Source of the DNA: Candidatus Hadarchaeota archaeon
GTDB taxonomy: Archaea > Hadarchaeota > Hadarchaeia > Hadarchaeales > JAGGTB01
Length of the DNA: 64,000 nt
Direction of reading: 5' to 3'
NCBI GenBank assembly: GCA_964384105.1
Contig: CAYLJV010000003.1
Location: forward strand, 64,001-128,000
In this document: positions 47,691-59,570 of the stretch, in pieces
Numbering within the stretch: position 1 is the stretch's first letter
How the letters are laid out: each line of letters begins with the position of its first letter
Made by a program: the position numbers and the translations under genes
The notes under the pieces: model-generated
Seen by the model: the letters and a program-made list of their open reading frames with translations, nothing else
The model's database searches: none
Told to the model about the DNA's origin: nothing

Positions 47691-47936
47691 ATGTCAAAGA
47701 AAGCTACAACACTTTATCTTGATGAGGGAACAGTAAAGGAAGCTAAGAGATTAGGTTTTAACTTATCCAGGTCTTGTGAAATAGCGTTAGAACGGAGAAT
47801 ACTGGCTGAGAAACGCAGGTTATCATTCGATTATTCGGAAAACTCTAAAGAAGTCAAACCTAAAATTAATCCTACAGTGATTGCGGGGGTTGCCAAGTCA
47901 GGTCAACGGCGCAGCGTTGAGGGCGCTGTCCCATAG
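47691..47936 (+). CDS. CcdA-like ribbon-helix-helix protein, homologous to the integrase N-terminus and reading into tRNA-Leu
   Basis: TTLYLDEGTVKEAKRLGFNLSRSCEIALERRI vs integrase ITVQISKSLVERAEEEGLNVSKSCELALERRI. Confidence 0.75.
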   Translation: MSKKATTLYLDEGTVKEAKRLGFNLSRSCEIALERRILAEKRRLSFDYSENSKEVKPKINPTVIAGVAKSGQRRSVEGAVP

Positions 47937-47970
47937 GGGTTCCGGGGTTCGAATCCCCGCCCCCGCACCA
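47883..47970 (+). tRNA. tRNA-Leu(GAG)
   Basis: GCGGGGG/CCCCCGC acceptor, CAGCG-TTGAGGG-CGCTG anticodon arm, variable arm, GGTTCGAATCC, CCA. Confidence 0.97.
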
Positions 47971-50785: not shown

Positions 50786-50882
50786 GAATCTTAAAAATTC
50801 TACAAGTTAGAAAAACATGAAACAATCTATGGCATGGATCAATCCAAACCTACTAGACTAGTAGTTACCCACTTATGACTAT

Positions 50883-51344: not shown

Positions 51345-52298
51345 TCAATACACTTCTACCTCTTCATCGAGCTCTTCAGCTAGTTCTTTGTACCTGTTTC
51401 TAACCGTGACTTCGGTAACGTCTGCAACTTCTGCCACTTCTCTCTGGGTTCTCCTTTCACCACATTTCAGCGCGGCTATGTAGAGTGCTGCTGCAGCTGT
51501 TCCAGAAGGAGTTTTGCCCGATGTCAATTTTTCTTCTTGTGCCTTCCGAATTATCTTCATAGCTTCAACCCTGGCTTCATCTGATATATTCAGCTCGCTT
51601 CCGAACCTGGCTACATACCTGCTTGAGTCCGTGGGGGGAAGATCAATGTCTAATTTTCTTGCAATAAATCGATAGGTGCGTCCTATCTCTTTTTTATCCA
51701 CTCGGCTAACTTCAGTTACCTCTTCGAGAGTTCTGGGCATTTGAGCTTCCCGACAGGCTGCGTAGAGAGTAGCTGAGACCACTCCCTCTATCGAACGGCC
51801 TCTAATTAAATCAGCGTATAAAGCTTCCCGATATATTTTGGAAGTATTTTCTCTCACGTTTCTCGGTAAACCAAGCTGAGAGGCCATCCGATCCATCTCA
51901 GAAAGGGCGAAAGCTAGGTTACGGTCCTTGGCACCTGAAACCCTAATACGTTTTTGCCATTTTCTAAGACGGTACATTTTATAGCGTTTTCCTGGAGACA
52001 GGGTCTTTCCTCGACTGTCTCTATTGCTCCAATCGATTTGGGTTGAGAGCCCCTTATCGTGAATAGTGTACGTCATTGGAGAGCCTCCCCGACTGCGCTC
52101 TTCTCTTTGCTCTTGACTGAAAGACCTCCACTCAGGCCCCCTATCCTTAATATCTTCCTTTATAACAAGGCCGCAGCTCCTGCAAACAATCGTATTCTGT
52201 TGATAATCCCTGACAGTAACACTATTCCCACAATTAGGACAATGAAACTCTGAACTTCTGTTCTTCACTTTCTTAGAGGAATAAGTATCGGTCAACAA
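51345..52298 (-). CDS. tfb: transcription initiation factor IIB (TFB) paralog
   Basis: [45 protein letters not shown]. Confidence 0.96.
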
Positions 52299-53230: not shown

Positions 53231-53780
53231 TTTCAATTCACTCCTTGATCAGTCCCAGAGAAAGAAGTTCTATTTATAAATTATGAATATCTCTTTTCAA
53301 GTTATTTCAGTTATTTCTTCTATGAACTCTCCAGCAAGCTCGACTTTATTGCCAAAACTTCTTATTAACTGTTTGGATTTACTTTCAGAGAAAAAAGCTC
53401 CTTTTACTCGCAATACATACTTTAGTTACCAACCTCGTAAATTTTTATCCCAAAAAACCGGATTTTACTTGAATTAGCTTCCTAATTGAACGAAAAATCT
53501 GAAGGAATCAAACCCGGGTCTTTTACTTATAAATAAAACCCTTGAAGTCCCTTTTCTTTATAGATAATTGGGCTTACAGGGGATTTATCTCCGAATAAGA
53601 CAAGTTGTTTTACTATATAGATAGTTTTCTTCTGTTTTTATTCCTTAGAAAGGTAAAAAAGAAAGTAAAAGCATGAAGGTGGCCTTCACGAAATTCCGAG
53701 AGAAGTTGGAAAATCAAGATTGAAATCACGAACCGAAAAGCATTTAATTTCAAATTCTGAGTTCGGGAAGGTGAGTTTGA

Positions 53781-53976
53781 GGGGCCGGGATTGTTACCCT
53801 TTCGCGGGCAGGTTGAAAAGCAGCCGATCGGTAGCCGACCGAAGCAGAGCCTGCCGGCATCGCCCGACCCCTGTGCCCCATTCTCAGTAAAAACAAGGAG
53901 GTGAGAAACCCCGAAGGGACACCAAAACCGCCAGTGTTGAAAACTCGGTTCCTAAAGAGAAGAAGTTCACCGGCGG
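53781..53976 (+). ncRNA. candidate structured ncRNA, copy 1
   Basis: GC-rich, shares conserved blocks and stems with 56347-56551; CGAAAAGCATTTAATT BRE/TATA at 53734-53749; T-tract near 54020. Confidence 0.6.
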
Positions 53977-54243
53977 AATCGTAAAACACATGACAATTAA
54001 TGTTATTAAACGAGGAATTCTTTTTGGCTTACTCCCTCCCATATATAATTTAACAATATGTTAAAAATATTCCTATTTTCTGTAATTCTACCTTCACAAA
54101 ACTTTAGCATAAGTAAATAAAAAGAATAAGGAGAGGTCCCTTGGTTCTGAAGAAGGGTCAGGGAGTTCCTCCATTTTTTTACTTTCACCCAACTCAGACA
54201 ACCGCTTAACAGTACATAACCAAAGAGTTAAATCTATGATAAA

Positions 54244-54507
54244 TTGGGAAGGCCCATACCTACTTTCAGATATGTAATCGAGAAAGAGATAGAAAATTGG
54301 AAAGAGTTCAAGAGAGCTTTGAGTAGGAAAGACAAAGAGATTTTCAATAGGATCATGGAGTACTGTAGGAAACACATTCCAGCTTGTTCTCAGACCAACA
54401 ATCCAGAACCCTTTCGGCCTATGATTATTTCTATTATTCTAGAGCAACTAAAGAAATTGAATTTTCCTGAAGAAGCTATCTCGAAAATTCAAGAGTTGAT
54501 AGAATAG
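54244..54507 (+). CDS. small helical protein resembling the PolB2-associated arCOG07300 family
   Basis: MGR..PTFR...W..F.RAL...D...F......R.H.......P.P....ISI.LEQ pattern, recognised from memory of the family. Confidence 0.6.
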   Translation: MGRPIPTFRYVIEKEIENWKEFKRALSRKDKEIFNRIMEYCRKHIPACSQTNNPEPFRPMIISIILEQLKKLNFPEEAISKIQELIE

Positions 54508-54571
54508 AAAGAATAAATTCAAAAGGGCAGAAACTATTTTGGTTTTTTACTTCTGTTTTTCTTTAATTGAC

Positions 54572-55507
54572 TTAATATGTTTCCAATTCAATTTCGAGTT
54601 CTTTGGCCACATCCTTATACCTGTTCCTGACAGTGACCTCGGTCACCCCCGCCACCTCAGCAACAGATCTCTGGGTTACTCTCTCCCCACCTTTCAAGGC
54701 GGCTATGTAAAGACACGCAGCAGCCGTCCCACTGGGACTCTTGCCCGAAGTCAGTTTTTTCTCTTGGACTCTCTTAATCAAATACATAGCATTCGTTTGG
54801 ACTTCTCCAGAAATACCAAGCTCACTACCAAAACGAGTCACATAACTGGCCGGATCAGTCGGGGGAAGGTGGATATCTAACTTTCGTGTTAAAAACATGT
54901 AACTACTAGTGATCTTCTTCATCTTAACTCGGCTTACCTCTTCGATCTCCTCAAGAGTTCGAGGCATCTTTGCTTCACGACATGCTGCATAAAGTGTAGC
55001 TGATACGACACCTTCGATTGATCTACCACGAATCAAGCCCTTTTCAACAGCCTCTCTGTAAATTTTTGACGCGATCTCCTGCGTACTTCTCGGCAGACCC
55101 AGCTGAGATGTCATCCTACTCATCTCACCAAGTGCAATGATCAAATTTCTATCACCTGAACTAGCGATCCTGCTTCGATTATGCCACTTTCTCAGTCGGT
55201 ACATCTGCTGGGACTTTTTTGGAGACAGATTCTTACCCTTCGCATCTCTGTTCTTCCAGTCAATATTAGTGGAAAGTCCTTTATCGTGAATAGTGCCCGT
55301 TGAAGGAGGCCCGGATCTCTTTTTATTCTGATATTCTTTGGCACTGAAAGCTCGCCATTCTGGACCCCTGTCCTTAATACTCTCTTCTATGATCCTACCG
55401 CAATCAGCACATATTCTAACGTTTTGCTGATAATCCATAATCCTGGAGGTACTACCACAGTTCGGACATTTAGCGGATGCTTTCTCAGAACCCTTAATAG
55501 AACTCAC
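54572..55507 (-). CDS. tfb: transcription initiation factor IIB (TFB) paralog
   Basis: [45 protein letters not shown]. Confidence 0.96.
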   Translation of the reverse strand: MSSIKGSEKASAKCPNCGSTSRIMDYQQNVRICADCGRIIEESIKDRGPEWRAFSAKEYQNKKRSGPPSTGTIHDKGLSTNIDWKNRDAKGKNLSPKKSQQMYRLRKWHNRSRIASSGDRNLIIALGEMSRMTSQLGLPRSTQEIASKIYREAVEKGLIRGRSIEGVVSATLYAACREAKMPRTLEEIEEVSRVKMKKITSSYMFLTRKLDIHLPPTDPASYVTRFGSELGISGEVQTNAMYLIKRVQEKKLTSGKSPSGTAAACLYIAALKGGERVTQRSVAEVAGVTEVTVRNRYKDVAKELEIELETY

Positions 55508-55990
55508 ATTATTACTCTTCTTCCCATCTACTAGTACTTTCCTCCGATTTTTCAGAATACGCTAAGGAGGAACTTAAGTAGTTCAAAAATGATTTTGAAA
55601 AGCCAGCCAAATATAAACTCTAACTCTACACCAAAAACACTTAAAAACTCGAAAACATCAAAAATACACTCAATCGATAAATAAATACCTAAAAAGTCTT
55701 AGAATTTTGTTCCAGACCATAAATATTCTTAAATAAGGTGACAGAACACCATATTTATTCTCATAGGGAATCCAGTTAACTCTTTCATAAAAGTTAAAAA
55801 TTAACTAATTGTTTTTCAATCAAAATATCAATTTTATCCATATAAAATTCATACCTATATCATCTTAGATGATATGGTAAAATCGGAATATTGATAGTTT
55901 TTAGTTTTTAGAAGTTTTTACTGAAATGAGAAATGAATAGTTTCTAAAGAGAAAGTAGATAAGAATTGAAAATGGTGGATAAGGTTTTAA

Positions 55991-56242
55991 TTGTATCCAA
56001 GATTAGGAGGATTTGGAGGGGTTACAATGAGCAAAACTAATCAATCAGTCACAGAAGAAGATGATGAGATTTTCAGCAATGAAAGATTTGCAGAAACAAC
56101 AATACAGAGGATAAGCAAGTATGTAAAAAATTACGGTGAGAAGGACAAGGAGGATATTTACAAGCTACTGAAACGGTGTTATGTGGCTCTGTGCCGATTG
56201 AGGAATTGGGAGCCACAAGATCTCGACAAATTCAGGGATTAA
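55991..56242 (+). CDS. small hypothetical protein
   Basis: GGAGG RBS before MSKTNQ (56027). Confidence 0.55.
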   Translation: MYPRLGGFGGVTMSKTNQSVTEEDDEIFSNERFAETTIQRISKYVKNYGEKDKEDIYKLLKRCYVALCRLRNWEPQDLDKFRD

Positions 56243-56346
56243 TGCATTATTTGGATGGTTATCTCCGATTTAACTTGAAAAATCCTAAATAAAAAATCGA
56301 AAAGTATTTTAATTCCAAAACAGTGATTTTGATAGATTGAAAATAA

Positions 56347-56551
56347 GGGGCCGGGATTGTTACCCTTTCGCGGGCAGGTTGTTGCCTATACCAGTTTAGG
56401 TCGGTCGCCAACCAACCACAGAGCCTACCGGAACGCCCGGCCCCAGAGCCCCCTTAAACCGAGCCAATGGGGAGGTGAGAAACTCCATAGGGGGACTCAT
56501 TCCGCCGGTGTTTGTAAATTCTGTCCTCAAGAGAAGAAAAGATACCGGCGG
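56347..56551 (+). ncRNA. candidate structured ncRNA, copy 2
   Basis: First 35 nt identical to copy 1; GGGGCCGGG/CCCGGCCCC and CCGCCGGTG/TACCGGCGG stems; CGAAAAGTATTTTAATT promoter at 56298-56314; T-tract near 56601. Confidence 0.6.
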
Positions 56552-56817
56552 GAGCTTGATAATGGAAATGTTAACTAAAGCATCTGAACTAGAAAGAAGC
56601 CTTTTCTTTAATCCACCCCCCCAATTGATTCATCGGAATTAAACTCCGTATGCAAAGACCCTTTGCCATCTGAATGTGTGCATTTAAATTTTACGAATTG
56701 TGTCGAAAGTTTTAGGGCAAGGATTTTGTTTGAAACTGTGGAGCTTATGGTTCACTTAAGGTAAATAATGAGGAGAGTTCAACAAATTTTCAGTTAAAAA
56801 CTCCTATTTTTTAGTTT

Positions 56818-58409: not shown

Positions 58410-59438
58410 TCAGAGAATTTCAATTCCAACTTTATCATATATCTTCTTCAAGTGCTTTGGTGTTTGTCCATTGTAGTTTCTCAAGTCAATACTTCCGAAG
58501 TGCCCAAGTAACATTTCCTTAATGTCAGTTGATCCGCCTTTCCTATCCCATTCTTGTGAGAAGAACTTCCTGCAGTGCTTCAGTTTTAGGTCTGGTTTTT
58601 CATCCATCTTGTTTGTAATGAGATAGATAGCCTTGTGAATGAATGGTCTTTCAGGAAACATTCCCTTCAACTTCTTCAGTCTCTTCTGTGCCTTTTTGTT
58701 GAAAACTACAATTCTTTCTCCTTTGGTCTTGGTCTCCTCCGCTGGAAGATTGATAATCCTATCATCGAGATTAATATCCTCCCAGTCTAACCTGTAAACC
58801 TCCCAGGGCCTCATCCCAGTAACAGCAGAAAGGTGAACTGCAGTCTGTGCTCTGTAAACGTATTTGTGTTCAGTGCCCTCGTGATCTAATTCATCCATAA
58901 GATTGAGAATATCTTCCTTCTCCACTATCTTAGGCCTGTGTTTACTCAAATTGGGTTTCTTGATCTTCTCAATCCAGTAAACGTTCATCTCCTTGAAGAA
59001 CTGCTTGATTGCTTGAATGTCATCGGAGAGAGTTCTGTTAGAAACCTCATCTCTTCTCTCGTTAAGATAATCAGTCACATCATTGAGACTGCAGGACCAA
59101 TTCACGTGTTCTCCCAGTTTTTCTAATTTTCCCTTAACTGCATTTATTCTTAGAGAACTTCTACCAGCCGCTTTTAGTCTGTTACAAAACTCTTCTATAT
59201 CTTTCTTCGAAAATGAGACCTTGTGATTATTGCCTTTGTTTCCATTACCATTCGGATAACTTCCATTTTGTGGTTTGAAGTTGTGATTGTTTGCTACATT
59301 GGAGTCTATTTCCTCTAGAGTTATGATTCTTCTCTCCAGAGCTAATTCACAGGACTTAGATACATTAAGCCCCTCTTCCTCGGCCCTCTCAACTAAACTT
59401 TTGGATATTTGAACTGTAATTTTATCTTCTATATTCAT
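58410..59438 (-). CDS. tyrosine recombinase/integrase with N-terminal CcdA-like RHH domain
   Basis: TGMRPWE (R), TKTK (K), KHCR (KxxR variant), LLGH, RNY (Tyr); likely start MNIEDK. Confidence 0.92.
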   Translation of the reverse strand: MNIEDKITVQISKSLVERAEEEGLNVSKSCELALERRIITLEEIDSNVANNHNFKPQNGSYPNGNGNKGNNHKVSFSKKDIEEFCNRLKAAGRSSLRINAVKGKLEKLGEHVNWSCSLNDVTDYLNERRDEVSNRTLSDDIQAIKQFFKEMNVYWIEKIKKPNLSKHRPKIVEKEDILNLMDELDHEGTEHKYVYRAQTAVHLSAVTGMRPWEVYRLDWEDINLDDRIINLPAEETKTKGERIVVFNKKAQKRLKKLKGMFPERPFIHKAIYLITNKMDEKPDLKLKHCRKFFSQEWDRKGGSTDIKEMLLGHFGSIDLRNYNGQTPKHLKKIYDKVGIEIL

Positions 59439-59440
59439 TT

Positions 59441-59495
59441 GATTCAGGGTGCAGTACACTCTAACTCGTACATAAAGGTCGCTCTGAGGAGGATC
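59441..59495. repeat. 55-bp conserved block, copy 2, in the divergent integrase/kinase promoter region
   Basis: 51/55 identical to 44004-44058. Confidence 0.9.
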
Positions 59496-59570
59496 AAGTT
59501 TAAAAAAGGAGTTTAAAAGTGAAATCACGTGTTTTTTTAGCTTATTACTTATATAACATTAACAATAGAT

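Follow-up and report, generated by a model that had tools for sequence, protein, structure and literature searches.

A lineage-restricted family of structured, GC-rich RNA elements with a Shine-Dalgarno or anti-Shine-Dalgarno loop motif in two related uncultured halophilic archaea

In this work, we analyzed two GC-rich islands in the AT-rich intergenic DNA of a Candidatus Hadarchaeota archaeon. They lie in a stretch of 64,000 nt (contig CAYLJV010000003.1, positions 64,001 to 128,000), which as a whole is referred to here as the window and corresponds to G000:C3:64001-128000, where G000 is the host genome, assembled into 12 contigs with a total of 1.62 Mb, 40% G+C and 90% completeness. The two islands, copies A and B, are members of a family of structured, free-standing RNA elements that is restricted in lineage and has so far been found in two related uncultured halophilic archaea that are MSBL1/Hadarchaeota-like. 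The element is non-coding, its fold is maintained by compensatory changes, and one of its helices closes a loop whose motif is a perfect Shine-Dalgarno (SD) sequence on the plus strand of the window and a copy of the 3' end of the host's own 16S rRNA on the minus strand. Which of the two strands is the RNA is the crux of the interpretation, and on this point the evidence conflicts. The strand, transcription as such and the mechanism are what we infer from these observations: we lean, a little beyond an even chance, towards an RNA read from the minus strand, and a role in translation initiation is our best guess, because one conserved motif, predicted to be unpaired, points there on either strand.

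Copies A and B open with the same 35 bases (53781-53815 and 56347-56381), after which CAGAGCCTRCCGG, CGCCCGRCCCC, GGAGGTGAGAAAC, CCGCCRGTGTT and ACCGGCGG follow in the same order in both, with variable stretches and indels between them. The cores have 58.2% and 57.6% G+C, against 24-35% in the flanks and spacers, and a BLAST search of the whole genome aligned copy B to copy A with 73% identity over ~200 nt (E = 5e-20). In these respects the initial annotation of the window described the shared blocks, their coordinates and the islands correctly, but its picture of two copies flanking an island TFB gene is not supported. A BLAST search and a covariance model (R1; 203 positions, 39 pairs) trained on the copies recovered seven copies in the host genome rather than two, on three contigs and with scores of 143-207 bits, and five of these lie elsewhere, among unrelated neighbours. 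The copies form two subfamilies, which differ in the extension of helix P2, plus one divergent copy, C1c. Their cores measure ~200-240 nt, and, counted from the first G, the similarity between copies spans about -50 to +295, a unit of ~345 bp.

The consensus fold consists of helix P1 (9 bp), closing a domain with an invariant one-sided loop of 15 nt, helix P2 and the hairpin P2b; helix P3, closing the loop that carries GGAGGTGAG; and the long hairpin P4. The pairings that had been named for copies A and B exist, and covariation is observed. For the first domain, we aligned eight members, namely the seven copies of the host and one shortened copy from the congener G002, which consists of this domain only and shows many compensatory changes. 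In this alignment 10 of the 26 pairs are altered on both sides, 88.0% (plus) and 91.8% (minus) of the cells are paired, and none of 500 shuffles matched the observed percentage of pairing, the both-side changes (counted as pairs or as cells) or the covariation score, although these counts are not independent events, all eight members being paralogs or close kin, and the shuffle statistics overstate independence. Sliding the partners by 1-3 columns lowered the pairing from 88-92% to 30-50%. P1, P2, P2b and P3 are all maintained via both-side changes, and P3 covaries among the copies, four of which maintain it with different sequences. That four helices are preserved through compensatory changes, across subfamilies and species, points to selection on the fold. 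A closing helix between leader and trailer was not supported: duplex energies of the 28 nt before P1 with the 100 nt after P4 were no better than those of shuffled leaders (z from -1.0 to +0.9). A bulged purine/pyrimidine pairing of leader and trailer is seen by eye in G002 and in copy A.

The element is not protein-coding, because indels of 1-2 nt occur within its conserved blocks, both among paralogs and, in a salt-lake run, from strain to strain, and the reading frames differ from copy to copy; the break of any shared frame had already been pointed out for copies A and B. Open reading frames (ORFs) of 50-79 aa do overlap both copies, on both strands; against these indels and frame differences, however, a protein-coding gene or a pseudogene family is hardly credible as an explanation. 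The same applies to chance similarity, which is excluded by the covariation together with E-values between paralogs that reach 1e-45. A small ORF after P4 (MI[T/M/I]E...) was also considered and discarded, with lengths between 2 and 48 codons and starts that are not conserved.

Searches against known RNA classes gave no assignment. At gathering score, Rfam 15 found only one tRNA in the whole window, and neither it nor ARAGORN reported anything at either core; with E up to 10, five weak matches appeared in 53600-56750, none of them on either core. At six other loci Rfam returned only the signal recognition particle (SRP) RNA, tRNAs and noise, with mir-306 (E 4.5) overlapping copy C1a. The genuine SRP RNA gene (C4:84328-84638, 190 bits) is unlike the element, and a suspected likeness to the SRP Alu domain was dropped; the genuine RNase P RNA gene lies at C3:148469-148758 (220 bits). 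A C/D or H/ACA guide was rejected by eye, as there is no ACA after P1 on either strand and the internal loop has 15 nt rather than 4; no small nucleolar RNA family scored, and the UGAUAA-CUGA stretch after P4 has no distant partner. The proposal of a new archaeal non-coding RNA is thus supported to the extent that the element matches no Rfam family and fits no class we know. The nearest precedent in the way of detection is offered by the Hgc RNAs of Methanocaldococcus and Pyrococcus, GC-rich non-coding RNA genes that were found as G+C islands and now are Rfam families. Like them, the present element stands alone as a structured GC-rich island amid AT-rich spacers. In contrast to them, it has no Rfam match, occurs in multiple copies and is of very narrow range.

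This range was delimited with R1 and with a second covariance model of the first domain only (R2; 92 positions, 26 pairs), the E-values of both being rough. R1 gave matches in the host genome and in its congener G002 alone among 61 genomes of the order, and R2 in two of the nine genomes of the family and two of the 66 of the phylum, many of the searched genomes being incomplete. BLAST in the 61 genomes detected only the host, besides a match of 22 nt in G019 (E 0.0027) that we take as chance. A pattern scan for the invariant loop returned four stretches in genome contigs (bacterial metagenome-assembled genomes), none in viral and nine in metagenome sequences. Rescored with R1, these 13 stretches did not exceed 16.6 bits, all of them partial, and were treated as chance. 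Plasmid and phage collections yielded no match to the element. Among named TFB relatives, the best come from the candidate division MSBL1 and Hadarchaeota, and the DNA sequencing runs that contain the stretch derive from hypersaline mats and a salt lake.

In the predicted folds, the most suggestive sequence of the element falls in the loop of P3. Read on the plus strand, it is a perfect SD sequence (GGAGGUGA), followed by a spacer of 5-7 nt and no start codon. Read on the minus strand, the same 9-nt motif, UCACCUCCU, equals the 3' end of the 16S rRNA of the host, which ends in GATCACCTCCT; in this orientation, a looser second copy of the anti-SD motif is present directly after P1. Outside the elements, 13 sites match the plus-sense motif and its context with at most three mismatches, and several of them are then followed by ATG.

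The strand was called plus in the initial annotation on the basis of a promoter motif, with the caveat that several C-A mismatches would become G-U pairs on the minus strand. The motif and its geometry stand, and the caveat proves to be substantial. On the plus strand, (i) P1 contains eight A.C or C.A cells and no G.U among 63 cells, all eight turning into G.U on the minus strand, and P3 contains seven A.C against two G.U; (ii) the consensus energy is -38.4 kcal/mol with an unfavourable covariation term of +2.62, against -43.7 and -1.19 on the minus strand; (iii) 37 of 273 cells are broken, against 24 of 287; and (iv) single-sequence folding gives a mean z of -1.5, with five of the seven copies no better than -2, against -2.7 on the minus strand, which is lower by 10-16 kcal/mol in four of the seven copies. 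A full path from G-C through G.U to A-U is found in three pairs, on the minus strand only. Singletons among three close copies also favour the minus strand, with 19 G>A and 11 C>T, the G>A excess lying mostly in stems by our own reading of the positions. Besides, the copy in G002 is co-directional with its surrounding operon only in the minus reading, while in the plus reading it would be an antisense unit squeezed within an operon spacer. Finally, several tRNA genes of this genome end in T4-CG runs, of which CGAAAAG, the first part of the promoter-like block, is the reverse complement, so the same bases could be a minus-strand terminator.

The alternative is an RNA of ~250 nt read from the plus strand, starting a few bases before P1 from a block resembling a B recognition element (BRE) and TATA box, and exposing in the P3 loop an SD sequence without start codon, which would serve as a decoy or sponge for the 3' end of 16S rRNA, for 30S subunits or for a C/U-rich partner. 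We regard this as less likely than not, only slightly behind our preferred reading, and a considerable body of observations weighs for it and against our preferred orientation. The motif CGAAA(A/G)-N2-3-TTTAAT begins 46-48 nt before P1 in four of the seven copies when searched with a regular expression, and a fifth block was identified by eye at copy C1c. It resembles tRNA promoters of the genome, coming near the tRNA-Val promoter in both sequence and distance, and in the divergent copies C3b and C1c it is kept better than the remaining flank. AT-rich boxes before P4 on the minus strand, in turn, would lie nearer to the helix, by ~8 nt, than the standard spacing of an archaeal start site allows. 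The composition of the plus strand, with 57% purine and A-rich loops, is like that of the SRP, RNase P and 16S RNAs here (54-59%), against 43% purine on the minus strand, and the three tRNA genes located at 77-210 nt from copies all share the orientation of the plus strand. The mismatch bias is not uniform either: one P2 pair is U.G on the plus strand in six of the eight members, P4 shows nine G.U against six A.C on this strand with an unbiased helix finder, and the ratio of A.C to G.U is just 19:15 when all 39 pairs of the plus consensus are counted. In addition, T-runs follow 45-55 nt after P4, the motif and its context resemble real ribosome-binding sites of the genome, and copy B folds best on the plus strand (z from -2.9 to -3.6).

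Several groups of bacterial small RNAs (sRNAs) come as siblings with C/U-rich anti-SD loops, among them the csRNAs of streptococci and RsaE and RNAIII of staphylococci. In the minus reading, the present family would be alike in its several paralogs, each with its own putative promoter and T-run, and in an unpaired pyrimidine-rich motif complementary to ribosome-binding sites. Of these features, the paralogs are present, and the identity of the motif with the 16S 3' end would count provided that the minus strand is the RNA. The element differs in being archaeal, two to three times longer and provided with a large conserved three-part fold and, if minus, a 9-nt motif identical to the 16S 3' end; it has no sequence or Rfam relation to the bacterial RNAs. 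The meningococcal sibling sRNAs, as treated in PMC5362039, are a further comparison. Our favoured, though tentative, reading is that sibling RNAs from the minus strand mask SD sequences. The single-stranded stretches of such an RNA would be C/U-rich, and its P3 loop would expose UCACCUCCU, which may pair with the SD sequences of mRNAs and lower their translation. In the host genome this would occur in trans, by a set of sibling RNAs, whereas in G002 the target would be pstB in cis, with the ribosome-binding site of this gene ~55 nt downstream of the motif. It counts against this reading that the genome yielded no specific mRNA target of extended complementarity. The SD decoy on the plus strand, proposed in the initial annotation, is the mirror model and would come close behind: the perfect SD sequence on that strand is real, but with the strand call in doubt the decoy is just one of two mirror-image readings.

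The copy of G002 deserves separate attention. It occupies the 195-nt spacer between pstA and pstB in a pstC-pstA-pstB operon, with eight bases of its anti-SD motif able to pair with the ribosome-binding site of pstB. In the closest ortholog, from G004 (PstB 90% identical), pstA and pstB are 1 nt apart and there is no domain; G001 and G003 have pstA-pstB spacers of ~100-130 nt without the domain, and the junction of the host genome is short. The junctions compared were L017 (G002:C102) 1454-1627 and L066 (G004:C27). Translation of pstB in G002 seems to begin at a new GTG codon that has an SD sequence of its own. This arrangement, with domain and anti-SD motif upstream of pstB on the operon strand, would suit a cis-acting leader (a riboswitch, a thermometer or a protein-binding operator) controlling the downstream gene, as would two copies of the host genome that in the minus reading have a co-directional gene 120-190 nt downstream. 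For most of the seven copies, however, the downstream genes are unrelated, convergent or distant on either strand, and no conserved small ORF follows the element. The constant position upstream of related same-strand genes that is expected of a riboswitch is not seen for the seven copies, only pstB of G002 fitting it, and for the family as a whole we consider a cis leader improbable.

With the masking of SD sequences by minus-strand siblings as the preferred reading, it has to be weighed whether the family is instead a selfish or decaying dispersed repeat, in the way of the small structured intergenic repeats of bacteria. In that case the ~345-bp unit (-50 to +295) would be moving, or would once have moved, at the DNA level, perhaps carried by integrative elements close to tRNA genes; the fold would either aid mobility or have no role, and any transcripts would be by-products. 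Such a repeat would account for a similarity that reaches past the fold, for the presence of several copies in one genome together with occurrence in one of six congeners and in none of the 59 other phylum genomes searched, for the domain in the pst spacer of G002 that its closest relative G004 lacks, and for the helix mismatches of several copies. It would also suit the location of two copies in a tyrosine-integrase island by a tRNA-Leu, of three of the seven copies at 77-210 nt from tRNA genes, and of one copy beside RelE- and HicAB-like genes, these being named by eye. Against it, at none of the seven copies do terminal inverted repeats or target-site duplications exceed the shuffled expectation: the longest direct repeats between the flanks measure 6-8 nt and the longest inverted repeats 6-10 nt, compared with shuffled means of 6.7-7.7 and maxima of 10-12. 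Furthermore, the genome has a single integrase of that type plus one fragment, its one TnpB gene is unlike the element, no IS110 and no reverse transcriptase were found in this 90% complete assembly, and compensatory changes preserve four helices between subfamilies and species. No empty site was recovered for the copies of the host: the flanks of copy C1b had no DNA match in six congeners, and downstream of the cluster of SRP RNA and tRNA-Ser the congeners are not syntenic. On balance, we hold the selfish repeat to be unlikely.

Two kinds of mobile DNA can be compared directly. Correia elements, REP/BIME and other small structured intergenic repeats, or miniature inverted-repeat transposable elements (MITEs), share with the element the dispersed copies in spacers, the patchy range, a copy inside an operon spacer (as in G002) and the promoter-like sequence; they differ from it in their terminal inverted repeats and target duplications, and in having one long hairpin rather than a multi-helix fold with compensatory changes. 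The guide or scaffold RNAs of mobile elements, such as the omega RNA of TnpB, the bridge RNA of IS110 and retron non-coding RNA, are likewise structured, of 150-250 nt, multi-copy and patchy, but no partner gene adjoins any copy of the present element. A derivation from IS200-IS605 elements was not supported either: the only TnpB ORF (393 aa, contig C3) adjoins no copy and the R1 score there is at most 7.2 bits. For the DEDD recombinase and the reverse transcriptase, PF01548 and PF00078 were not found in the host genome.

Carriage by a mobile element, as first suggested, is seen for the two window copies only and is not general. Copies A and B lie in a stretch bounded by a tRNA-Leu (47883-47970) and a tyrosine integrase (58410-59528), which also includes a TBP gene, two TFB genes and a winged-helix gene. 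The neighbour genes of the seven copies differ and are unrelated, and only two copies are near TFB genes; the link to TFB is thus limited to the window copies, and an action on the co-encoded transcription factors, TFB or TBP, finds no support. At the tRNA-Leu, an 81-aa CcdA-like ORF runs into the tRNA (47691-47970); its N-terminal portion is similar to that of the integrase ORF at a distance of 10.5 kb (45% over 33 aa), and its last 22 residues come from tRNA-like sequence that recurs at the other tRNA-Leu, on C1. It is possible that 47691-47970 and 58410-59528 are the ends of an integrated element holding the TBP gene, both TFB genes and both RNA copies. The host genome encodes at least four other paralogs of the TFB gene at 54572-55507 (81%, 81%, 63% and 62% identity) besides its neighbour at 51345-52298 (66%), a large TFB family for a 1.6-Mb genome. 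The copies adjacent to tRNA genes are the copy at 84899, near tRNA-Ser at C4:84732-84821 and after an SRP RNA - tRNA-Ser cluster; the copy at 135831, near tRNA-Pro at C1:135999-136076; and the copy ending at 153786, near tRNA-Thr at C1:153503-153576. The chance of three of seven copies lying 77-210 nt from a tRNA is ~0.01, a rough estimate that counts spacers only. The RelE-, HicA- and HicB-like small ORFs beside the divergent copy C1c occupy G000:C1:152080-153163 and were named from their translations.

The features of the two window copies are collected in Table 1, where promoter and terminator assignments are those suggested by sequence. The two flanking BRE/TATA-like motifs, both ~30-47 nt ahead of the first G, have the consensus CGAAAAG-YA-TTT(T)AATT, and the T5 run with its C-rich motif is present in all copies and in G002. 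A second shared block lies at 54120-54195 (also at G000:C4 ~50790-50860), ~340-410 nt past copies A and C4a; its beginning is purine-rich, and it includes a GC-rich hairpin and a T7/T4 run. A weak match to the Rfam family rli59 falls there. DNA contigs from the sequencing runs break where the 35-mer is shared. In run X1, one contig (depth 5) links 53859 to 56498 and omits 2638 bases, joining positions that are non-homologous in copies A and B; it reflects either another member of the family within the community or an artefact of assembly.

Table 1. Coordinates of the element copies and associated motifs in the window
Feature	Position	Strand	Details
Copy A, element core	53781..53980	.	P1/P2/P2b domain, P3 with the SD/anti-SD motif, P4 hairpin; R1 206.5 bits
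Copy A, first domain	53781..53871	.	P1 53781-53789 with 53863-53871; invariant asymmetric loop 53793-53807; P2 53807-53815 with 53848-53855; P2b hairpin 53828-53832 with 53838-53842
Copy A, helix P3	53873..53922	.	53873-53879 with 53916-53922; encloses GGAGGTGAG at 53897-53905 (minus: CUCACCUCC)
Copy A, P4 hairpin	53928..53976	.	53928-53936 with 53968-53976; loop purine-rich on plus
Copy B, element core	56347..56558	.	Same architecture; subfamily with longer P2 extension; R1 192.9 bits
Copy B, first domain	56347..56444	.	P1 56347-56355 with 56436-56444; invariant loop 56359-56373; P2 56373-56381 with 56422-56429
Copy B, helix P3	56446..56498	.	56446-56453 with 56490-56498; encloses GGAGGTGAG at 56471-56479
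Copy B, P4 hairpin	56502..56551	.	56502-56510 with 56543-56551
BRE/TATA-like motif of copy A	53734..53751	+	CGAAAAG, 2 nt, TTTAATTT; 30-47 nt before copy A
BRE/TATA-like motif of copy B	56298..56316	+	Same motif; precedes copy B
T5 run and C-rich motif	54017..54040	.	ACTCCCTCCC; 45-60 nt past P4 of copy A; copy B equivalent 56601-56622

Few structured regulatory RNAs are known in archaea, and none is known to us for the uncultured MSBL1/Hadarchaeota-like halophiles, although no literature search was aimed there. The practical value of the family is limited until RNA data exist, because its range is very narrow (two of 66 genomes), its host is uncultured and its expression is presumed. It is tempting to speculate, with less confidence than we place in the minus strand, that the family represents a class of archaeal riboregulators in which a scaffold of ~200-250 nt mimics the 16S 3' end (or a ribosome-binding site without start codon) and globally tunes initiation, as a family of siblings that also enters operon spacers. 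If true, this copy of the 16S 3' end, or this ribosome-binding site without start codon, would provide a direct handle on the control of SD-dependent initiation in archaea. The pst operon of G002, with a folded RNA domain gained in its spacer, bears on the origin of new cis-regulators.

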